Assembly: GCA_043819095.1 (NCBI GenBank)
Contig: JBDRFF010000020.1
Coordinates: 101,890-161,755 of the forward strand
Direction: 5' to 3'
Origin: Candidatus Omnitrophota bacterium
GTDB lineage: Bacteria > Omnitrophota > Gorgyraeia > VGKH01
DNA length: 59,866 bases
Position numbers and translations under genes: made by a program. The notes under the pieces are model-generated. The model saw nothing but the letters and a program-made list of their open reading frames with translations. It had not been told where the DNA came from and did not search any database. Of the stretch, positions 7,728 through 44,601 are shown in pieces (within the stretch, counting starts at the first letter, position 1; each line of letters starts with the position of its first letter).

Positions 7728-9331
7728 ATTTTTTCCTTTGTCCCGTTTTTAGATCCTTTGCCCGCTTTTTTCAAATGCTTTCTTGCTGACTGTAATCTTT
7801 GGGAAAATGGATCTTTTTCAAATGCTCTAGACCATTTCTTCATAGTAATCCATCCGCCAAAACGAACCAAGGCATTGCGCCAGGGCTGATACCATCTCTT
7901 CCACTCTGATTTGATATTATACAAAAAGAACAATAAAGCCGGAAACCATAAAATGTGTAAACCGATTATAAACATATATTTAAACTGATAAAACTTACCC
8001 ATAATTTTTCTAATCGCATCCTGCATCTGCTCTGCAGTTAAGGGCTCATCAGGCTCAAACAGCGGAAAATTTCCGTCGTAATACTGCCAGCCCACGTCAT
8101 CAAGCGGATAAATCCTGTTCTGCTCCTTTAACCTTTGCCTTAATCTTGTCCCGGGAAGCGGCCCTGCCAATAAAACCTGTATTGTATCAATCTTGGCTTT
8201 TTTGATAAATTCCTTAAAGCGCTTTATACGCTGGGCTACCGGCATACTGAATTTCACATCTTCTTTCATGGGATAGCCGAAGATAAACATACCGTGGACC
8301 AAAAACCTAAATTTATGGAATATCTTTGCATTGGCGATCATGTCTTCTGGGCTTAAGTGTTTGTTCATCGCCTCTAATTCTTCTTGGATAGGCGACTCAA
8401 AACCAATGGCTACTGAGTCAATACCTGCCTGGCGCATAGCAAAAAGTAATTGGGGATCTTTAGCCTTATCCAATCTTATCTGGACAGTTATATCCAGTCT
8501 TCTACCAGTACTTTTTTGATAATCCCTAAGCATATTACAGAACCTTATTGTCTCATCCCTTTGTTGTCCAAAAAGGTCATCAACGATAAAAAAATGTCTG
8601 GCATCCTTAGTTTCTGAAAGATTACTCATTAGTTCAAGCAACCGTTCAGGTGGGGCATATCTGGGTTTGCCTTTAACAGCGCAGAACTCGCAATCCATAC
8701 CGCAACCTCGTATTCTTTCAACAGGATAAATTTTAATCTTGGCGTAGCGCACTAAGGAAAAATCCGGGAGGGGAAATTTATCAAAATCTGTTATTGGGTT
8801 TCTGTCAGAGGTACGGATAATTTTTCCGTTCTCTAAATAGGCTATGCCTTTGACATCGCGCAAATTCTTTTTGCCTTCTATTGCCTCCAGGAGCTCTTTG
8901 ATGGTCTCTTCTGCCTCTCCCATAACCAGATAATCTATGCCGCAAGTTAGGCCTTCGGCAATATTATCTTCGAGGAAATGCTGGCCTCCGGCAATAGTTG
9001 TGGCTCCTTTGGATTTGTAAAACCGGGCTAATTGATAAAGCCGCGGGATAGTACTGGTGAGTCCGCCGTAGAATCCTACGACATCTGTAGGTCTTATGTT
9101 TTGTAAGAATTCGTGGTCAGCGCCGCCAGAATCAGATTTGGGCCCATATCGACGAAGATTATTTTCATCAATAACCTCAACATCCCAGTTCTCCATTTTA
9201 TTGACCACGCTAGCCACGCATACCGGACCTAAGGCCGTAGTCTTACTGGCAATAAAAGAATAAACATTAAATGCCGGATAAGCCGGCACGATAATCCTTA
9301 ATCTGTGTCTTTTTTTGGATAAGTCTAACAT
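7724..9331 (-). CDS. B12-binding-domain radical SAM protein
   Basis: RGCGMDCEFC (CxxxCxxC), N-terminal AGGQH/GEAE B12-like domain, GFES, PGT. Confidence 0.88.
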   Translation of the reverse strand: MLDLSKKRHRLRIIVPAYPAFNVYSFIASKTTALGPVCVASVVNKMENWDVEVIDENNLRRYGPKSDSGGADHEFLQNIRPTDVVGFYGGLTSTIPRLYQLARFYKSKGATTIAGGQHFLEDNIAEGLTCGIDYLVMGEAEETIKELLEAIEGKKNLRDVKGIAYLENGKIIRTSDRNPITDFDKFPLPDFSLVRYAKIKIYPVERIRGCGMDCEFCAVKGKPRYAPPERLLELMSNLSETKDARHFFIVDDLFGQQRDETIRFCNMLRDYQKSTGRRLDITVQIRLDKAKDPQLLFAMRQAGIDSVAIGFESPIQEELEAMNKHLSPEDMIANAKIFHKFRFLVHGMFIFGYPMKEDVKFSMPVAQRIKRFKEFIKKAKIDTIQVLLAGPLPGTRLRQRLKEQNRIYPLDDVGWQYYDGNFPLFEPDEPLTAEQMQDAIRKIMGKFYQFKYMFIIGLHILWFPALLFFLYNIKSEWKRWYQPWRNALVRFGGWITMKKWSRAFEKDPFSQRLQSARKHLKKAGKGSKNGTKEKI

Positions 9332-9379
9332 TCGATTATTTAGTTCTTAAGGATGTTTCCCGGTCCGTTCCCCGAATTC

Positions 9380-9584
9380 AATGAGCGCACGATTTATGGA
9401 GCGAAACGACATAAATCGTTTGCGCGAATTGATCCCCCCTTCTTGCTTTCGCCCCGAGAAATGCGAAGCATTTCCGGGACTCAGTCCTTGAAATCGCATT
9501 CGCGATTTCTAAGGGCAAGAAAGCAGGGGGGATAATTCCGACAGCAACTTATGTTCACTTTATTCCATAAGTTGCGTCGTCATT
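9380..9584. repeat. Three-hairpin element, copy B (with nested extra hairpins)
   Basis: Right arm nearly identical to copy A; central stem like copy F with a ~60 bp insert; overlaps the acr3 stop codon. Confidence 0.88.
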
Positions 9585-10665
9585 ATGCTCGAAACAGATG
9601 TTTAGTCCTCAAGCAGACCCTTACCAGCAAAAGCATAACCGGTACCTCGATTAATACGCCCACCACAGTAGCCAAGGATGCTCCTGACGAGAGCCCGAAA
9701 AGCATTGTAGAAGTAGCGATTGCCACTTCAAAATGATTGCTTGCGCCAATAAGCGCAGAAGGCGCTGCATCTCTATAGGGCAGCTTTAACCACTTCGCCA
9801 TTGCATAGGTTAAAGCAAAAATAATGCAAGTCTGGATAAAAAGCGGCACAGCGATTAAAAAAATTACCTGCGGCTGATTGATAATCAGCTCGCCTTTAAA
9901 AGAAAATAATAAAACAAGCGTAACCAGCAGCGCAGCGATAGAAACCGGAGTCAAATTATGGAGAAACCGCTCTTGGAACCATTCAAAACCTTTCTTGGCA
10001 ATAATCCATTTCCGCGTATGGTATCCTAAAAAAAGCGGCAATCCTACATAGATTACGACGGATAAAACAATCGTCTGCCAGGGAATAGGCATTCTATTGA
10101 CTCCCAACAGCCAGCTGCCTAAAGGAGCATAGAGAAATAGCATCGTAAGTGAATTAATCGCTACCATAACAAGGGTGTGCCCGTCGTTGCCTTTGGATAG
10201 ATGTCCCCAGATAAGCACCATTGCAGTGCAGGGCGCGATCCCTAATAAAATGCAGCCGGAAATATAAGACCTGTATAATTCTACCTGCTGGCCCCCTTTG
10301 ACAATCTCAAGGCCGGGAAGCCAGCCTTTAAAAAATACTCCCAAAAACAGACTCGCAATAACCAGCATAGTAAAAGGCTTGATGCACCAATTGATAATTA
10401 ATGTAAGGATAACCGGTTTGGGTGTCTTGCCTGCTTTTATGACTTCGGCGAAGTCGATCTTCACCATAATAGGATACATCATGAAAAAAAGACATATCGC
10501 TATGGGGATTGACACCTGGTAGATTGATATCTTATCTAAAGTGAGGGCTACCTGGGGAAGGAGTTTTCCCAGCAGAATACCGAAACCAATGCAACCTATA
10601 ACCCAAAGCGTCAGGTATTTTTCAAAACAACTTAATCTTAGTTCCTCGTGAATAACTTTTTCCAT
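9583..10665 (-). CDS. acr3: Acr3 family arsenite efflux transporter
   Basis: [40 protein letters not shown]; likely start ATG 10665 (alternative TTG 10689). Confidence 0.93.
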
Positions 10666-10703
10666 TGCCTCTTTTGGCGCGGGTTTCAATGACGAGATAA
10701 TTT
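10656..10703. repeat. Direct repeat: aroE 3'-end fragment plus element half-arm, copy 3
   Basis: 47/48 nt identical to 12486-12533; encodes [10 protein letters not shown]. Confidence 0.92.
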
Positions 10704-10714
10704 ACGGAGTCTAT

Positions 10715-12403
10715 TTACCCCAACGAATCTGCTTGTTTTTGTAATTCTAAAACTTTGGTGTATATAACTATGTTAAATTTCTTTTTTTCTATAAAGCCCT
10801 CTAGCTTATCGTCTTCTTTAACTACTGGTAAGTATTCAATATGATATCTATCCAATAACTCTCTGGCTTCGGAAGCTGAAACACTAGATGAAGTCTTAGC
10901 TATTACAGGTTCCATCAAATCGTGAGCTAAAATTAATCCGCTTAAATCCATTTGAAGGACCATCTGTTTTATACCTTCAACAGTTATAATGCCTTTTAAT
11001 TTCTTCTCTTTATTTACTACGGGATAATTTAAATTATCATTTTCGCTAAATATTCTTAAAATATCATCTAATCTCATGTTCTCATATATCAGGGGGGGAT
11101 TTTTATCCATAAAGTCTCTTACCCTACTTTGTTGGACAACATCTTCTTCTGTTATATTTAATCCTACTTCACCTGCTTTAGTGACTGCTAGTTTAACAAA
11201 AGCGGGCCCAACCATTTCAAGTATAAAAGCTGTGGCAGTAATAATTAAAACAATTGCATTTCCAATAGGCCCTGGGAAATAGTGACTGGCCAAGATAGAC
11301 AAGCCAATAGCAACGCCTGCCTGACTTAAAAGACATAAAGGAAGATATTTTCTAACCGAATTTGGTGCTTTAGAAATTCGTGCACCAATATTTGCACCTA
11401 TCGTCTTACCTGCCGTCCTTCCGATAAGATATACACAACCCAATAAAGCTATAGGTAAAGTTATATGGCTAATATTAAGTTTTGCTCCCACTAAAACGAA
11501 GAAAAGAACATATATGGGCGGTGTAAACCCCTCCACCAATTTAAACAACTCTTTGCTCTTTCTTGGCGCAAGATTAGTAACAAAAACCCCTAATGTCATA
11601 GCAGTCAGCAACATATCAATGTGTAAGGCTATAGATAATCCTGAAGCAAGAAGAACCATTCCAATTGAAAACGTTAGAAGCCGTGCTGCTTCTGAATATT
11701 TTTTTAAGAGTTTATTGAGAATTAGACCGGCTATAACACCTATTGCGATAGAGCCGCCGATTTCATATAAGGGATTAATAAAAGTCCTCAAGACACTTTC
11801 GTGGATATTTCCGGTAAGGCTGCCAGCGATACTAGCAGCTATTGCGAAAAGAAAAAGTGCTAATCCGTCATCCAGCGCAACTATACCTAATACGGTTCTA
11901 GTTAATGGGCCACGAGTCTTAAATTCCCGCAAAACCTCTGTGGTGGCTGCAGGGGCAGTAGCTGACGCAATAGCACCTAATAATAAACCGAGAGCCCAAG
12001 AAAGCCTCCAATCTTTAAATAATAATCCTCCTATAAAGCCTACAGAAATTGAAACTAGTAAAAATGCCGTAATACCTTCAAACAACAAAATATTTATGAA
12101 TTGCTTGCCGTATTTAACTAGAACATCCTTCTTTAACTCTCCTCCAATCATAAAACCGATTAATCCCAAAGCAAAATAACTCAAAGGTTGCAACGTATTT
12201 ATAATATCTTGATTTACAATTTTTAACCCCGATTCACCAATCAGGATTCCTATAGCAATATACCCTACCACTTGAGGAATCTTTAGTTTTTGAAACAAAC
12301 GACCACCTATGGTTCCGCCGAATAGCGCTATTCCCAGAAGAAATAATATATTCAAATGCGGAATTGAAATTTTAGCTACAACATAATTTAATTGTTCAAA
12401 CAT
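10715..12403 (-). CDS. Cation/proton antiporter (CPA2/Kef-like) with C-terminal CBS pair
   Basis: ~12 TM segments, ATAPAAT, ALDD, SQAGVAIGL; two CBS-like repeats. Confidence 0.88.
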   Translation of the reverse strand: MFEQLNYVVAKISIPHLNILFLLGIALFGGTIGGRLFQKLKIPQVVGYIAIGILIGESGLKIVNQDIINTLQPLSYFALGLIGFMIGGELKKDVLVKYGKQFINILLFEGITAFLLVSISVGFIGGLLFKDWRLSWALGLLLGAIASATAPAATTEVLREFKTRGPLTRTVLGIVALDDGLALFLFAIAASIAGSLTGNIHESVLRTFINPLYEIGGSIAIGVIAGLILNKLLKKYSEAARLLTFSIGMVLLASGLSIALHIDMLLTAMTLGVFVTNLAPRKSKELFKLVEGFTPPIYVLFFVLVGAKLNISHITLPIALLGCVYLIGRTAGKTIGANIGARISKAPNSVRKYLPLCLLSQAGVAIGLSILASHYFPGPIGNAIVLIITATAFILEMVGPAFVKLAVTKAGEVGLNITEEDVVQQSRVRDFMDKNPPLIYENMRLDDILRIFSENDNLNYPVVNKEKKLKGIITVEGIKQMVLQMDLSGLILAHDLMEPVIAKTSSSVSASEARELLDRYHIEYLPVVKEDDKLEGFIEKKKFNIVIYTKVLELQKQADSLG

Positions 12404-12462
12404 ATATGCTCTCCAGTATTCTCACTGACTTTTTCCTTTCCCCTGGGCCGTGTTCAGATATA

Positions 12463-12533
12463 TTATTTGAGCGCTTCGAGCAAGGCTTTTTCCATTGCCT
12501 CTTTTGGCGCGGGTTTCAATGACGATATAATTT
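12463..12533 (-). repeat. Displaced/recoded copy of the aroE 3' end plus element half-arm, copy 2
   Basis: Encodes [17 protein letters not shown] versus aro[18 protein letters not shown] (13102-13155). Confidence 0.92.
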
Positions 12534-12534
12534 G

Positions 12535-13059
12535 CTAGCCTAAAAACTTAAACAATCCGAAAGAAAAAACCAACAACGCTAATAATATAATAACCGCGCT
12601 TCTAATGATAGGGTTATAGACTATATGTTCGCTTATAATGTAAAAGAAACGGGTAACTGCCATCTTTTTATCATTCATATGTGCAACTTTATGAAATCTT
12701 TCCAATCCTTCTTCCAGCGCAATTCCCAGCATATTTCGCATTTGTATAGACGCGTATCTTCCTGCGTATCTTCTTCTCCATTCATATTTGCCGCTACAAA
12801 CAAAAGAATCTAACTCATCAATTTTTTCGTTAAGAATATTTATAGCGTATTCGATATCCGTAGGAGAACGATATATATTGTTGAATAAATCAATATACAA
12901 TTGGCGAGCATAAAGTGATCTTGAATGGATCTCATGCAATATGACCGCTGAATCATCTAAATTGTACTTTCGTTTATTAGAAGAAGTATCTTCGCAGCCT
13001 AAAGAACAAAAGAGTAAAAAAATTAAAAGTATCCCTAAACTTTTTCTCAACATCATCAT
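12535..13059 (-). CDS. Hypothetical lipoprotein with C-terminal TM helix
   Basis: Lipobox SLGC; hydrophobic C-terminus; AAGGGG RBS. Confidence 0.65.
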   Translation of the reverse strand: MMMLRKSLGILLIFLLFCSLGCEDTSSNKRKYNLDDSAVILHEIHSRSLYARQLYIDLFNNIYRSPTDIEYAINILNEKIDELDSFVCSGKYEWRRRYAGRYASIQMRNMLGIALEEGLERFHKVAHMNDKKMAVTRFFYIISEHIVYNPIIRSAVIILLALLVFSFGLFKFLG

Positions 13060-13101
13060 TTCCCCTTAGCGGCGTTGGCCGCTGTCGTTTTTTTATTTAT
13101 A

Positions 13102-14007
13102 CTACTTAATCGCCTCGAGAAGTGCTTTCCCCATCGCCTCTTTTGGCGCGGGTTTGTTCGTCCAAATCTCAAATGACGCCATGCCTTGATAAGTGAGCAT
13201 GCCTAATCCATTTGCAGTCTTGGCTCCAATATTTTTGGCAAGTTTTAATAACTTTGTTTCGGCTGGATTATAAATCAAATCATAAACAAATAAGTCCTTA
13301 TGAAGATGATTTTCTTCTATAGGAAGCGGATCGTCAGCTTTTAATCCCACGGGCGTGGCATTGATTAACAAGTCACATTTTTTTATAATTTGGGGTATCT
13401 CTTCAGTCGAAATGAATTGTAATTTATCTTCTAATAATTTTCTGAAATAATCCGAAATTTGCGAAAAATACTCTTTCGCCGAATTAATAGCTTCTGCTCG
13501 GATATCATTTACATATATTTTTTTAACTCCTAACTCTTTCCAGCTCAAACTGGCAATAACAGCTCTTCCAGCGCCTCCACATCCAATAAGAAGAACCTTT
13601 TTATTCTTTGGATCAAATTCTTCCTCTAAAGATTTTAGAAAGCCTGCAGCATCAGTATTCCAATATTCTAATTTATCGCCTTCTCTCTTTACGGTATTTA
13701 TGGCTCCAGATATTTTAACGTAATGCAACTCTGGAGACATTTGTACTGTATATTTATCATAAGGGAATTTATTTTCTAATATTTCTCTCACTTTTATCTT
13801 GTGCGGCACAGTGACATTTAATCCAAAGATTCCTTCGTTCTTTAGATTATTTAGGAAATCTGATAATCCTTCGGTCTTTACTTCAAATAATTTATATTCT
13901 GCATCGATTCCCAGCGCCTTAAACGCAGCATTATGCATACAAGGAGATAAACTATGCTTAACCGGAAATCCGATTACGCCGTAAATTTTCTTAGCCTTTT
14001 TACTCAT
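13102..14007 (-). CDS. aroE: Shikimate dehydrogenase
   Basis: HSLSP, NVTVPHK, GAINT, NTD, GCGGAGRA, NATPVG, DLIYNP, GLGML. Confidence 0.95.
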   Translation of the reverse strand: MSKKAKKIYGVIGFPVKHSLSPCMHNAAFKALGIDAEYKLFEVKTEGLSDFLNNLKNEGIFGLNVTVPHKIKVREILENKFPYDKYTVQMSPELHYVKISGAINTVKREGDKLEYWNTDAAGFLKSLEEEFDPKNKKVLLIGCGGAGRAVIASLSWKELGVKKIYVNDIRAEAINSAKEYFSQISDYFRKLLEDKLQFISTEEIPQIIKKCDLLINATPVGLKADDPLPIEENHLHKDLFVYDLIYNPAETKLLKLAKNIGAKTANGLGMLTYQGMASFEIWTNKPAPKEAMGKALLEAIK

Positions 14008-14008
14008 A

Positions 14009-15541
14009 TTATAAACTTAACAATTTGGAGTTTGCAGACTTTGAAAGGACTTTGTTGATGGCGTTTAGATAGGCCTTGGCTGATGCCTCAATAATATCAG
14101 TGCTTGCGCCCCGGCCTATGACCTCTTGCTTATTGGCCCTAATCTTGATACTTACTTCACCGAGTGCGTCTTTACCGCGGGTAACCGATTGGATAGAATA
14201 ATCCAGAAGCTCGCCTTTGACTTTTGTGATTTTATCGATTGCCTTGTAAAGCGCATCGACCGGACCGTCGCCGGATGAAGACTTTACGAAGAATTTTCCT
14301 TTTGACTTTAGTTTTACTGTCGCAGACGGAGCCGTGTGCGTGCCGCTAGCAATTTGTAAAGATGAAAGTTGCCAGATTTCCGTAACCTTGCTGAATTCAT
14401 CCTCTACGATTGAAATCAAGTCATCGTCGTAGACAGTTTTCTTCTTATCAGCCAGGTTCTTAAAATGTTTAAAGGCAGCCTGGAGTTCTTTTTCTTTTAA
14501 TTTTATGCCAAGTGAGTTTAATCTGTCTTTGAAAGCGTGGCGGCCGGAATGTTTTCCTAGGACAAGGCCTTTTCCGGTAAATCCAACATCAGACGGTTTT
14601 ATAATCTCATAGGTTGCGCGCTTCTTTAATACTCCGTCCTGATGGATTCCAGCTTCATGCCTGAATGCATTTCCGCCCACAATTGCTTTATTCGGCGCGA
14701 CCACAAAACCGGTCAGCTTACTAACCAGACGGCTGGTCTTATAAATCTCTTTTGTGTTTATGGAAGTTGAGACATCGCTAAAGATATCTTTTCTAGTTCT
14801 AATTGCCATGACAATTTCTTCCATTGATGCGTTTCCTGCGCGCTCACCGATTCCGTTTATGGTGCACTCAACTTGACGTGCGCCATTTCGTACCGCAGCG
14901 AGAGAATTTGCAACCGCGAGTCCCAAATCATTGTGACAATGCACAGAGATTATCGCCTTATCTACGCTGGGAACAACTTCCAATAATTCGTGGATTAATT
15001 CGCCAAATTCACCCGGTTCAGCGTATCCCACGGTATCAGGAATATTTATCGTGGTTGCGCCTGCTTTGATTGCAGTATCAACTACCCTAAAAAGAAAATT
15101 CTTATCTGTGCGCGATGCATCTTCCGGAGAAAACTCAATATCCTTAATCTTTTTTCTAGCATATGCGACCATTTCGCGAGTCAGACGGATAATCTCATCC
15201 TCCGCCTTCTTTAATTTATATTTCATATGTATTTTGGATGTGGCTAGAAATACGTGGATGCGGCCAGACCTCGATGGTCTAATCGCCTGATAAGCGCAAT
15301 CAATATCTTTTTTCGTGGCGCGTGCTAGGCCACAGATAGTTGCGCCTTTTATATTTGAAGCGATCTGTTTTACCGAATCAAAATCCCCTTTTGATGAAAT
15401 AGGAAATCCTGCCTCGATTACATCAACGCCAACGCGGACAAGCGCTTCAGCGATTTCAAGCTTTTCCTTTTTATTTAGGCTTGCGCCCGGAGCTTGTTCT
15501 CCGTCACGCAGAGTTGTATCGAAAATAATTATTTTACTCAT
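14009..15541 (-). CDS. leuA: 2-isopropylmalate synthase
   Basis: DTTLRDGEQ, HCHND, GERAGN, HQDG, regulatory domain GPVDA. Confidence 0.96.
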   Translation of the reverse strand: MSKIIIFDTTLRDGEQAPGASLNKKEKLEIAEALVRVGVDVIEAGFPISSKGDFDSVKQIASNIKGATICGLARATKKDIDCAYQAIRPSRSGRIHVFLATSKIHMKYKLKKAEDEIIRLTREMVAYARKKIKDIEFSPEDASRTDKNFLFRVVDTAIKAGATTINIPDTVGYAEPGEFGELIHELLEVVPSVDKAIISVHCHNDLGLAVANSLAAVRNGARQVECTINGIGERAGNASMEEIVMAIRTRKDIFSDVSTSINTKEIYKTSRLVSKLTGFVVAPNKAIVGGNAFRHEAGIHQDGVLKKRATYEIIKPSDVGFTGKGLVLGKHSGRHAFKDRLNSLGIKLKEKELQAAFKHFKNLADKKKTVYDDDLISIVEDEFSKVTEIWQLSSLQIASGTHTAPSATVKLKSKGKFFVKSSSGDGPVDALYKAIDKITKVKGELLDYSIQSVTRGKDALGEVSIKIRANKQEVIGRGASTDIIEASAKAYLNAINKVLSKSANSKLLSL

Positions 15542-15542
15542 A

Positions 15543-15566
15543 TTATTTGCGCATCCAAGGCATCAT
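15543..15566 (-). repeat. Recoded duplicate of the last 8 codons of ilvC (MMPWMRK*)
   Basis: 20/24 nt identical to 15674-15697; all four differences synonymous, including the stop. Confidence 0.85.
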
Positions 15567-15567
15567 A

Positions 15568-15678
15568 AATGAGGCCACAACTTATGGAACGATAGTGAAC
15601 ATAAGTTGTTTGACCGAATTTATCCCGAGTCCCAACATAAGCTTTTATGGGACGAGGGATCTTATTTTTTTCCTCACT
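15568..15678. repeat. Three-hairpin element, copy C (right arm degenerate)
   Basis: AATGAGGCCACAACTTATG-GAACGATAGTGAA-CATAAGTTG-TT-TGACCGAA; central CCC..GGG stem; ends CTCACT over the ilvC stop. Confidence 0.82.
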
Positions 15679-22082: not shown

Positions 22083-22106
22083 GATGCCCTAATCTCTCCT
22101 TTCTTT

Positions 22107-22293
22107 AATGAGCACATAAGTTACGGAGTTTAAAAACGACGTAACTTATAAGTGCGAATTAAACCCCACAACTTTTTAGTATTCAAATTTATTTTTTAGT
22201 AAACCCCGCACCTTTTAATATATAAAAGGTGTGGGGTAAGTTCGGACGCATAACTTATGTCGCTCTCTTAGCTCCATAAGTTATGTCCTCACC
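22107..22293. repeat. Three-hairpin element, copy D
   Basis: AATGAGCAC-ATAAGTTACG..CGTAACTTAT-AA-GTGCGAA; CCCCGCACCTTTT..AAAAGGTGTGGGG; inverted arm ending CTCACC at the pfkA stop. Confidence 0.86.
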
Positions 22294-23258
22294 TATGTTA
22301 AGATTTTTATTAAATTGTAAAGTTCCTCTAACGCCAATTCTCTTTTTTTGCAGGCCTCTTTAAAGGTGACAACATTGAGCTTATCAGCAACAATACCCAC
22401 AGCCTTGTCTGATTCTCCCTTCATCAATAAATCCACTGCTGCAGCACCTAAGCGAGTGGCCAAAATCCTATCATCAGCAGTAGGCACGCCACCTCTTTGG
22501 ATATGGCCTAAGACAACTTCGCGTGTCTCTAAATCTGTTTTTTCTGTTATTGCTTTGGCGATATCAACAGCTTTTCCTGCGCCTTCGGCAACAACAATAA
22601 TCCAGCTAATTTTTCCCTTCTTGTTTCCTTCTACGATATCACTGCAAATTTGTTCTATATCGAATTTTCTTTCTGGAAGCAATGCATCTTCCGCGCCACC
22701 TCCGATAGCAACATTTAGTGCAATGTATCCAGAAGAACGGCCCATGACCTCCACGACAAAAATCCTTTCCATGCTAGTGGCTGTATCGCGAATTTTATCA
22801 ATGGCATCAAGCGCAGTATGCACCGCTGTATCTGAGCCGATTGTATAATCTGTGCCGCATAAATCATTATCGATTGTCCCAGGCACTCCAATACAAGGGA
22901 TTCTAAATTCTGAAACTAATGCTTGGACTCCGCGATAAGTGCCGTCTCCGCCGATTATGATTAGTCCATCAATATTATTCTTCTTTAATACATCGGCAGC
23001 TTTTTTTCTACCCTCTTTAGTTTTAAATTCTTCACATCGGCCTGTCTTAAGAATTGTACCTCCGCGACCGATTATATTTGAAACCGAGCGATGATTAAGA
23101 AGTTCTATCTCTTCATTAATCAGACCGGTGTATCCGCGATAAATACCCATTACTTCTAACTTATTATATATGGCATAACGCACGCAAGAACGTATCGCTG
23201 CATTCATTCCCGACGCATCTCCGCCAGAGGTTAATATTCCGATTCTCTTCGTCGCCAT
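22293..23258 (-). CDS. pfkA: ATP-dependent 6-phosphofructokinase
   Basis: TSGGD, GGDGT, GTIDND, EVMGR, GHIQRGG; likely ATG overlaps the ahcY stop. Confidence 0.96.
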   Translation of the reverse strand: MATKRIGILTSGGDASGMNAAIRSCVRYAIYNKLEVMGIYRGYTGLINEEIELLNHRSVSNIIGRGGTILKTGRCEEFKTKEGRKKAADVLKKNNIDGLIIIGGDGTYRGVQALVSEFRIPCIGVPGTIDNDLCGTDYTIGSDTAVHTALDAIDKIRDTATSMERIFVVEVMGRSSGYIALNVAIGGGAEDALLPERKFDIEQICSDIVEGNKKGKISWIIVVAEGAGKAVDIAKAITEKTDLETREVVLGHIQRGGVPTADDRILATRLGAAAVDLLMKGESDKAVGIVADKLNVVTFKEACKKRELALEELYNLIKILT

Positions 23259-31000: not shown

Positions 31001-31076
31001 TGGAGCGGGAGACGGGGCTCGAACCCGCGCCATCAACGTTGGCAACGTTGCACTCTACCAACTGAGTTACTCCCGC
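31001..31076 (-). tRNA. tRNA-Gly(GCC)
   Basis: GCGGGAG acceptor, CAACG-TTGCCAA-CGTTG anticodon arm, TTCGA loop, CCA encoded. Confidence 0.96.
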
Positions 31077-31098
31077 GTTAAATCCTTTTTCAAATTTA

Positions 31099-31180
31099 TG
31101 GGCGAGAGAGGAGTTGAACCTCCATGCCTTACGGCACATGGTCCTAAGCCATGCGCGTCTGCCAATTCCGCCACCCGCCC
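31099..31180 (-). tRNA. tRNA-Leu(TAG)
   Basis: CATGG-CTTAGGA-CCATG anticodon arm, long variable arm TGCC-GTAA-GGCA; CCA not encoded. Confidence 0.95.
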
Positions 31181-31189
31181 GAGCATAAC

Positions 31190-31265
31190 TGGTGAGCCAC
31201 CCGAGACTCGAACTCGGCACACCCGCCTTAAAAGGGCGGTGCTCTACCGGATGAGCTAGTGGCTC
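31190..31265 (-). tRNA. tRNA-Lys(TTT)
   Basis: CCGCC-CTTTTAA-GGCGG anticodon arm, TTCGA loop, CCA encoded. Confidence 0.95.
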
Positions 31266-39435: not shown

Positions 39436-39449
39436 CTCGATCCTCCTCA

Positions 39450-39632
39450 AATGAGCAGACGACTTACGGAAGTGCCAACGACGTAAGTCGTAGGCCTTTT
39501 AGGCCGTCTGCGAATTTGACCCCCCACCACTTTTAAGAATTCTAAGTTCAAAAAAGTGGTGGGGGGTAAGCTCAGACAAACAACTTATGTTCCTCCGACG
39601 TTTCGTCGGAGTCCATAAGTTGTGTCTTCGCT
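39450..39632. repeat. Three-hairpin element, copy E
   Basis: AATGAGCAGAC..GTCTGCGAA; CCCCCCACCACTTTT..AAAAGTGGTGGGGGG; right arm loop carries CTCCGACG-TTT-CGTCGGAG. Confidence 0.86.
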
Positions 39633-39652
39633 TATTATATCTGAATTTTTTC

Positions 39653-43664: not shown

Positions 43665-43734
43665 GCACCCTGATTTTCTTTACCCCTGATTTATGCGTCT
43701 TGATACTGTAGACCGCAGTATCCAAAACTTTAAT

Positions 43735-43900
43735 ATATAGGCAGGTCTTCTGGCTCTTGGATCAATCTACTCTCCGCGCCTTCTCGGTCCATTTGGACCA
43801 ATGGCCTCCTGCGGATTTCGTCCCCAATCACAGCGGCGGGACCGCGTCTGCTTCAAACAACAGACTTCCCTGTCAGGCTAAAACTATATAGCACCTATAT
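43735..43900 (-). ncRNA. Cobalamin riboswitch
   Basis: AGGTGC..AGGGAAGTCTG..GCGGTCCCGCCGCTGTGA..GCCATTGG..GAGAAGGC..GAGCCAGAAGACCTGCCT (B12 box). Confidence 0.93.
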
Positions 43901-43904
43901 AGGA

Positions 43905-44411
43905 CTAATTTTTTAAAAGAACAGTGGCAAGACGAGTATTCTTAACTCGTTTTGCAATCAACTCATATGCTCCGAATAATACCGTTGAATAAACAAGCGT
44001 CGATAGAACCATATGTCGGAAAAATGGAATCGCCATCACATAACAATTTATGAGTCCTTCGAAAGTATGGGTATACCAACCAACCAGCCATACGCCGAAA
44101 TTAGTAATCAAAAAGAATAAAACTGCCGAAAGCAAAGACGATCCTGCAACAGTCAAAGCAGATTTTCGTTTCTTTTGGGTTATTCCTAAAACAGTAATCA
44201 AAATAACGCTGCCCCAGGTAAAAGCAACTACCCCGTGAAGTCCTAAAAATAAATCAGTGATAATCATTAGAGATAAAGGAATCAGTATAGCATATTTTTT
44301 ATTTAAATAAAAACCGCTAAATAAAGCAATTGCCACAACTGGCGTGAAATTCGGGACATGCGGAATGAATCTCATTGCTATTCCTAATAATATTAATGCG
44401 ATTGCTAACAT
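43905..44411 (-). CDS. DUF6580/ECF S-component-like membrane protein (possible B12 transporter)
   Basis: RFIPHVPNFTP, FFLITNFGVW, AIPFF; ATG 44411 with AAGGAGG; context. Confidence 0.72.
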   Translation of the reverse strand: MLAIALILLGIAMRFIPHVPNFTPVVAIALFSGFYLNKKYAILIPLSLMIITDLFLGLHGVVAFTWGSVILITVLGITQKKRKSALTVAGSSLLSAVLFFLITNFGVWLVGWYTHTFEGLINCYVMAIPFFRHMVLSTLVYSTVLFGAYELIAKRVKNTRLATVLLKN

Positions 44412-44424
44412 ATTTTCCTCCTTC

Positions 44425-44569
44425 AATGAGCGCACAATTTACGGAACGATAGTAAACGTAAATTGTCTGCGCGAAATGGTCCCCCCTTCTTGCTTTCGCA
44501 AGAAAGCAGGGGGGACAAATTCAGCCAACAAACTTATGTTCACTGCGTTCCATAAGTTTGGGCTTTATT
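44425..44569. repeat. Three-hairpin element, copy F
   Basis: AATGAGCGCA-CAATTTACG..CGTAAATTG-TC-TGCGCGAA; CCCCCC..GGGGGG stem; inverted arm. Confidence 0.88.
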
Positions 44570-44572
44570 TGA

Positions 44573-44601
44573 ATTCTATTAGAATTAACCGATATTGTCA
44601 A
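44573..44601 (-). promoter_or_regulatory. sigma70 promoter reading into element F and DUF6580
   Basis: TTGACA-17 nt-TAGAAT. Confidence 0.7.

Follow-up and report, generated by a model that had tools for sequence, protein, structure and literature searches.

Three copies of the aroE 3′ end, two of them beside repeat-derived arms, in an Omnitrophota genome, and the possible stacking of single-gene segments

Palindromic intergenic repeats of the REP/BIME/REPIN, ERIC and Correia types are familiar in bacteria. Stacked insertion at one spot is a known bacterial route of gene gain, and in Streptococcus thermophilus elements of the ICESt1 type accrete in tandem at the 3′ end of the gene fda. The relevant part of PMC5704250 sets out how newcomers can join decayed elements in which the att sites persist. 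According to the part of PMC3146451 that deals with the ssrA islands of Dehalococcoides, a 20-nucleotide (nt) direct repeat of the 3′ end of the target gene recurs downstream, each repeat is accompanied by a short conserved motif with no alignment to the target gene, and the islands form a tandem array where synteny is broken, some of them without an integration module. Here we describe a related arrangement at aroE, the shikimate dehydrogenase gene, of a Candidatus Omnitrophota bacterium. The window analysed is a stretch of 59 866 nt (assembly GCA_043819095.1, contig JBDRFF010000020.1, positions 101 890 to 161 755) from a metagenome-assembled genome (MAG) of 1.06 Mb in 56 contigs, which is 75% complete and has a stated contamination of 0.23%. 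Coordinates are window positions unless prefixed with C20, the contig of the window, and numbers beginning with G, L and C denote genomes, loci and contigs, respectively. In this window the 3′ end of aroE is present three times and each extra copy adjoins a short arm which, judged by its sequence, is the end of a dispersed hairpin repeat. We tentatively read the arrangement as the result of stacked insertions.

The aroE gene (13102–14007, minus strand) is intact. It codes for 301 amino acids (aa) with the Pfam domains Shikimate_dh_N and SDH_C, and its C-terminal motif is conserved in relatives. Within it lies the first of three exact copies of a 20-nt core, at 13136–13155 (minus strand, codons KPAPKEA), which is followed by tail 1, the final 34 nt of the gene including the stop codon (13102–13135, minus strand). 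The core recurs at 12497 and at 10667 with no mismatch; a search allowing up to three mismatches returned no fourth match, and none was obtained in 100 shuffles. Copy 2 (12463–12516, minus strand) consists of the core (12497–12516) and a complete recoded tail 2 with a stop codon of its own. It differs from the true end of aroE at 11 of 54 nt and at two of 17 residues. All of the nucleotide differences are located past the core, with 11 in the 34 nt of the tail and none in the 20 nt of the core (Fisher p = 0.004). As the 11 differences alter only two of the 17 residues, both tails appear to have evolved as working aroE ends in different lineages. Tail 2 is also nearer to the tails of the sister genus than tail 1 is, with 39 versus 33 and 40 versus 35 matching positions of 54.

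Copy 3 (10656–10686, minus strand) contains the core (10667–10686) and the next 11 nt, which are of the tail 2 type, and then becomes the gene for the arsenite efflux protein ACR3 (9583–10659, minus strand; TIGR00832, 404 bits), the ATG of which lies inside the repeat. Copies 2 and 3 belong to a 48-nt repeat (10656–10703 and 12486–12533) in which 47 of 48 nt (97.9%) are identical and the longest exact repeat is 40 nt; its upstream 17 nt are not aroE sequence. An earlier reading made from the sequence alone had proposed that the aroE 3′ end occurs three times, that copy 2 is recoded with 15 of 17 residues kept and that a single gene lies between successive repeats. These proposals are confirmed by the exact core copies, by the confinement of the differences to the tail and by the two intervening open reading frames (ORFs) at 12535–13059 (174 aa) and 10715–12403 (562 aa). 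The triple aroE tail is a real and statistically clear feature of this DNA. At the opposite limit of the 14.4-kb block described below, a possible degenerate fourth copy of the core was rejected, its match of 8–11 nt being no better than that of 22% of random windows.

Copies 2 and 3 both adjoin AATGACGA(G/T)ATAATTT, at 12518 and 10688, respectively. Half-arm 2 (12517–12533, minus strand) is formed by 17 nt of the end of a hairpin module and half-arm 3 (10687–10711, minus strand) by about 25 nt; the arms begin 1–3 nt past the stop codon of the preceding gene, the former 1 nt past that of the 174-aa ORF and the latter 3 nt past that of the exchanger encoded by the 562-aa ORF. The 17 nt are common to both junctions with one mismatch. 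Extension of the arm into ACGGAGTC is found at copy 3 only, as the sequence at copy 2 departs from the arm and enters the stop codon of the ORF before it. The sequence-only claim that both extra copies abut half of an element arm therefore stands for the shared stretch, and in its longer form for copy 3 alone. Compared with the termini of complete hairpin elements at other places on the contig, the 26 nt that flank copy 3 agree at 25 of 26, 24 of 25 and 25 of 27 nt. In this arm the element terminus, one side of the module stem and the beginning of the loop are present, the partner strand is missing, and its termination coincides exactly with the terminus of the repeat element (AATGA...). The arm–core junction thus occurs twice, with different cargo attached at different points of the arm (17 versus about 25 nt left). 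An origin of the half-arm from aroE itself was considered and rejected, the two having only 7 nt (CGTCATT) in common compared with the 25 of 26 nt shared with repeat ends.

A weight matrix was built from 33 module ends, and hits of 10 bits or more were counted across the genome. Complete elements account for 94 of the 99 hits. The aroE arm, at 32.1 bits, is the only strong outlier, the remaining four scoring 10.8–12.2 bits, which makes the truncated arm a feature of one place and not a general habit of the repeats. Searched for alone with three mismatches allowed, the 16-mer was found four times against 3.2 expected, which is not above chance, and the weight rests on the exact copies next to the core. 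No full hairpin element contains the aroE core, and no other gene tail joined to a repeat end was found in this genome. The junction shows no RNA or DNA structure beyond that of shuffled sequences (z = 0.02).

Nearly all genes of the window, and all genes of the aroE repeat region, lie on the minus strand. In the direction of transcription they follow the order ilvB, ilvN, ilvC, leuA, aroE, the 174-aa ORF, the exchanger, ACR3, hairpin element B, a B12/radical SAM gene, a staphylococcal-type nuclease, hairpin element A and diadenylate cyclase. An aroE gene was found in 40 of the 41 genomes searched, the closest relatives being 54–61% identical, and at 17 metagenome loci, the best of which is 59% identical. 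The order ilvBN–ilvC–leuA–aroE is conserved in relatives, and in five genomes (G033, G018, G029, G401 and G402) aroE is followed directly by the gene for prepilin peptidase and then by aroC. Here aroE and prepilin peptidase are separated by a lineage-specific block of 14.4 kb (C20:100563–114990, made up of window positions 1–13101, minus strand, and the 1.3 kb ahead of the window), and synteny breaks exactly at the aroE 3′ end. The sister genus (G001 and G002) has a different 6.5-kb set of genes at this flank. Furthermore, G001 holds two variants of the locus (L005, on G001:C92, and L025, on G001:C49) which are 84% identical at the nucleotide level in aroE and 90% in the next gene; directly past aroE they differ by about 220 nt (an ORF of about 50 aa), with no aroE-tail repeat. 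The 14.4-kb, 6.5-kb and G001 differences together mark the aroE 3′ flank as a place of changing content in the family. On contig C6, no remnant of an aroE tail precedes the genes which in the sister genus come after aroE.

In our view, the arrangement may have arisen by the tandem accretion of two small integrase-less segments through recombination within the aroE core, each segment carrying a replacement tail; we favour this reading as quite possible, if short of probable. The two segments would have been inserted into the aroE 3′ end successively or as a pre-formed tandem. At each insertion, circular or otherwise incoming DNA would have recombined within the approximately 20-nt core that it shares with aroE, bringing with it the core and a replacement tail, one gene and a short arm from the end of an Omnitrophota hairpin repeat. 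Integration of this kind would preserve aroE and push the earlier tail downstream behind the arm, at an attR-type junction, so that the resulting order would be aroE body, core, tail 1, ORFan, arm, core, tail 2, exchanger, arm, core, truncated tail and ACR3. We envisage a circular intermediate and a recombinase acting in trans. The segment with the ORFan would have arrived last, the newest segment being nearest to aroE, and the lesser resemblance of tail 1 to the tails of the sister genus fits the tail now on aroE having come last. The truncation of the third tail may reflect a later join at the ATGGAA start of ACR3, a start shared by the homologue in L063.

The locus has four of the features by which integrative elements are recognized, namely direct repeats of the target end, a target kept intact by a replacement end, a conserved element-side arm and interrupted synteny. 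Different cargo behind one and the same arm is what would be expected of related elements having an attP arm or attachment region in common. The sequence-only reading had proposed repeated insertions with recoded tails that were mediated by the hairpin sites. The first part is supported by the direct core repeats, the diverged but protein-conserving tail, the conserved arm and the break in synteny. The second part was not borne out: a single strong module end lies outside a complete element, the full elements are free of the core, there is no local recombinase and the junction occurs in no other genome searched.

Several observations weigh against stacked insertion. The segments are single-gene units of 0.64 and 1.83 kb, far below the size of usual islands. 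The third copy is an incomplete tail, and the distal original end that simple accretion would leave is absent. In addition, 11 nt of the core (GCGCCAAAAGA) are conserved at the nucleotide level in the sister genus too, so that the identity of the core is weaker evidence of a crossover than the Fisher test implies and is only partly a signature of recombination. No second aroE tail was found at 42 loci from relatives and metagenomes (second hits at E ≥ 0.41) or at five further loci, 400 other genomes of the class lack the arm–core junction, and no metagenome contig contains its exact 26-nt form. The 40-nt exact repeat could mislead an assembler in a short-read MAG. There is no integrase or integrase remnant in C20:100001–116000, where the best tblastn match has E = 1.2. 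The recombinases found in the genome are two Xer-like genes and one 365-aa tyrosine integrase, none of which is linked to the core, and no member of the Y1, serine recombinase, DDE (PF01609 and rve), IS110 or TnpB-type families was found in the 75%-complete genome.

The repeat region itself contains no recombinase or transposase. The PF00589 match nearest to it is an Xer-like gene about 20 kb away (C20:94067), the position of which is conserved in relatives. The 365-aa protein is the only phage-type integrase found in the genome. Its gene lies with an adjacent 69-aa helix–turn–helix ORF on the 4.5-kb contig C51 (L023, 233–1536), which does not contain the aroE core.

The hairpin repeat is a palindromic element of 100–220 nt, six copies of which are located in the window (7023–7163, 9375–9590, 15564–15665, 22103–22296, 39446–39644 and 44418–44575). 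A profile built from these six copies identifies 70 loci genome-wide. In each element two hairpin modules in inverted orientation enclose a variable, GC-rich centre, and the whole folds into one long hairpin (−64 kcal/mol, z = −7.8). Its usual site is intergenic, between the stop codon of one gene and the ribosome-binding site of the next. At 19 of 34 module ends the complement of a Shine–Dalgarno sequence (CTCC or CCTC) is found within 14 nt and that of a start codon (CAT) within 30 nt, and the stop codon of the upstream gene can overlap the other terminus, as that of ACR3 does with element B. The terminal motif is present in 30 of the 41 genomes searched (29 of the 40 relatives, across families), with up to 73 occurrences per genome and none in the reversed control. 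There are 77 pairs of elements with at least 90% identity over at least 40 nt; many of these are on different contigs and reach at least 90% over 60–147 nt. No Rfam family matches the element at gathering thresholds, and at E ≤ 1 there are two sub-threshold microRNA hits only. Full-text literature searches on Omnitrophota repeats returned nothing relevant among the papers listed, and the RAYT/Y1 transposase family PF01797 has no match in the 75%-complete genome. The elements resemble REP/REPIN or ERIC-type repeats, and they may be DNA recombination sites, RNA structures or both.

Element A (7023–7163) and element B (9375–9590; nhmmer, 147 bits), to neither of which a strand was assigned, have right arms (7101–7160 and 9527–9586) that are the same at 59 of 60 nt and form direct repeats flanking the nuclease and radical SAM genes. 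The idea that this near-identity is special was ruled out by the 77 similar pairs. A hairpin module is found between ilvC and leuA both here (15564–15665) and in G033, which belongs to a different family (L026, 3472–3550); the position may be conserved, a hint that some copies are old or functional. On contig C50 (12493–15634) four solo hairpin modules lie about 1–2 kb apart, and exact repeats of 26 and 18 nt recur there at the same spacing of 1996 nt, which may reflect a duplicated unit.

The arrangement could also stem from a one-off recombination, illegitimate or facilitated by homology, in which no dedicated site-specific system took part, an explanation that we consider unlikely but by no means negligible. 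Related Omnitrophota DNA would have entered by homologous recombination on the ilv–leu–aroE side and by a microhomology join at a broken hairpin repeat; the arm–core junction would have formed once, and the second copy would stem from a later local event that used the 48-nt identity. That the truncated arm is unique in the genome, where complete elements account for 94 of 99 module ends and the one strong exception is at aroE, agrees with an accident of this kind, as do the lack of a recombinase in cis and the divergence of the two G001 variants right past aroE without a repeat. The cut in the arms falls inside the hairpin loop or close to it, there are only 2–3 nt of possible microhomology at the arm–core junction, and the end of copy 3, ATGGAAAAAG, together with the ATGGAA start of the ACR3 gene in L063 suggests a microhomology join. 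A random break would not, however, be expected to leave the arm at the exact terminus of the element, the junction is found twice with different neighbours, and the contrast between no differences in the core and 11 in the tail also argues against a single accident. We consider it improbable that the locus is an artefact of assembly, in which coexisting strain variants or a small circle were threaded through the 40-nt exact repeat to give a tandem order present in no single chromosome. Misjoining cannot make the arm–core junction itself. The two 48-nt repeats are told apart by one base and by their unlike outer flanks, no second copy or alternative contig of any gene from 9000–14500 is found in the MAG, and the stated contamination is low (0.23%). 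The artefact nevertheless draws support from the state of the MAG (56 contigs, 75% complete), from an exact repeat that is shorter than many assembly k-mers, from the exchanger segment, which is flanked by the repeat on both sides in the shape of a graph loop, and from the variation of the aroE flank between strains in G001.

Two further explanations assign the hairpin repeats an active part, and we regard the first of these as very doubtful. Here the repeats would be cassette sites comparable to attC, and an enzyme acting at their termini would splice promoterless single genes into aroE and between repeats. An arm that matches full-element ends at 25 of 26 nt and stops at the exact terminus would suit such sites, and the inserted genes are all co-oriented with the operon. 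The elements look recently active or homogenised, with 77 pairs of at least 90% identity over at least 40 nt, and A and B share an arm at 59 of 60 nt while flanking the nuclease and radical SAM genes. Against this, none of the Y1, serine, DDE, IS110 and TnpB-type families was found in the 75%-complete genome, and there is no integron-type integrase nearby. Most full elements occupy the gap from the stop codon of one gene to the ribosome-binding site of the following gene (19 of 34 ends), aroE is the only gene with a tail joined to a repeat end, and a motif found in 29 of 40 relatives across families would fit a REP-like structural or regulatory repeat equally well. It seems just as doubtful that the terminal 25 nt or so of the class-wide repeat serve as a recombination site, used together with the aroE core by an enzyme, possibly a host Xer-type protein or one missing from the MAG, which splices promoterless genes into the ilv–leu–aro operon. 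If true, this would amount to an integron-like capture platform without an integron integrase, in which a recoded tail restores the target at each insertion.

Under the favoured reading of stacked insertions, the cargo of segment 1 is the 174-aa ORF (12535–13059, minus strand). It has a lipoprotein-like signal and a C-terminal hydrophobic stretch. It is an ORFan, with no homologue besides itself among 5.8 billion proteins, no Pfam or NCBIfam match and no usable atlas hit. The cargo of segment 2 is a CPA-type Na+/H+ exchanger of 562 aa with two CBS domains as assigned by Pfam (10715–12403, minus strand). Homologues with 53–78% identity occur at 21 loci, mostly in Omnitrophota, and none of them adjoins aroE. 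The exchanger was not found in four of the five relatives searched (G001, G002, G033 and G018), which include both genomes of the same family. At four of the eight Omnitrophota loci scanned (L050, 3623–3689; L065, 5905–5970; L066, 5883–5947; L067, 5903–5969) the exchanger homologue is immediately preceded by a fluoride riboswitch, and a promoter-like TTGACTTA...TAATAT, judged by eye, precedes the homologues at several loci. The window exchanger starts 57 nt past tail 2 and has neither the fluoride riboswitch nor the promoter-like stretch. Since it was not found in four of the five relatives and lacks the usual upstream control features, the exchanger is, to judge from these comparisons, an accessory gene which arrived or moved without its own control region. 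The family is probably fluoride-responsive elsewhere, and the window copy would have lost this control.

The ACR3 protein is 87.5% identical to the ACR3 encoded beside an exchanger homologue in L063, and the L063 gene also begins with ATGGAA. Genes for ACR3, the radical SAM protein and the nuclease adjoin exchanger homologues in other Omnitrophota (L063, L049, L052 and L047), and for this reason what lies past copy 3 may be one older block of genes and not a set of separate cassettes. The other genes of the 14.4-kb block code for diadenylate cyclase, a DUF3465 protein, a weakly HEPN/AbiU2-like ORF, an ABC-F protein and a long GTPase with an EF-Tu domain, extended by about 340 aa at its N terminus. 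Elsewhere in the window we note a cobalamin riboswitch (43723–43913, minus strand, 110 bits) and a cluster of genes for tRNA-Gly, tRNA-Leu and tRNA-Lys (31001–31265).

Omnitrophota is an uncultured phylum with small genomes in which mobile elements have hardly been described. If the reading of stacked insertions holds, the locus would be a case of gene gain in this phylum by serial site-specific insertion at a housekeeping gene, in units down to one gene. Through this case a dispersed hairpin repeat, with its motif in 29 of 40 relatives, is linked to one DNA rearrangement at least, and this link makes the role of the hairpin repeats testable with population metagenomes. Should the arrangement be an artefact or a one-off illegitimate event, it would be of local interest only.

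Compared with palindromic repeats of the REP/REPIN, ERIC and Correia types, the hairpin element is similar in having about 70 dispersed palindromic loci, inverted modules and an intergenic position in transcribed units. It differs from REP-type sequences in that no RAYT/Y1 protein was found in this genome, the terminal motif is class-wide, the position ahead of ribosome-binding sites is unusual and there is no Rfam match. The locus resembles integron arrays in its series of single, co-oriented and apparently promoterless genes downstream of a transcribed gene. In contrast to an integron, there is no IntI gene here, and the separators consist of an arm and a repeat of the target gene rather than complete attC hairpins. 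Both segments end in truncated half-arms without the partner strand, which sets them apart from integron cassettes, and we infer from the repeated core an identity of the attP × attB type rather than attI × attC.

With the cis-mobilizable elements and the accretion treated in the relevant part of PMC5704250, the locus shares tandem stacking and a target gene that is kept intact. It differs in its single-gene segments (0.64 and 1.83 kb), in an array that shows neither an integrase nor a functional partner element and in an element-side arm that comes from a dispersed hairpin repeat. The Dehalococcoides ssrA islands, as far as the corresponding part of PMC3146451 describes them, are a close parallel, with a 20-nt repeat, a neighbouring motif, tandem arrangement, a break in synteny and islands free of integration genes. 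Here the target is a protein-coding gene with a recoded tail rather than transfer-messenger RNA, there are two segments and the array has no serine integrase module. The kind of event is known; what is new in detail is how small the units are, that the arm stems from a dispersed repeat and that the host belongs to this phylum, Omnitrophota.

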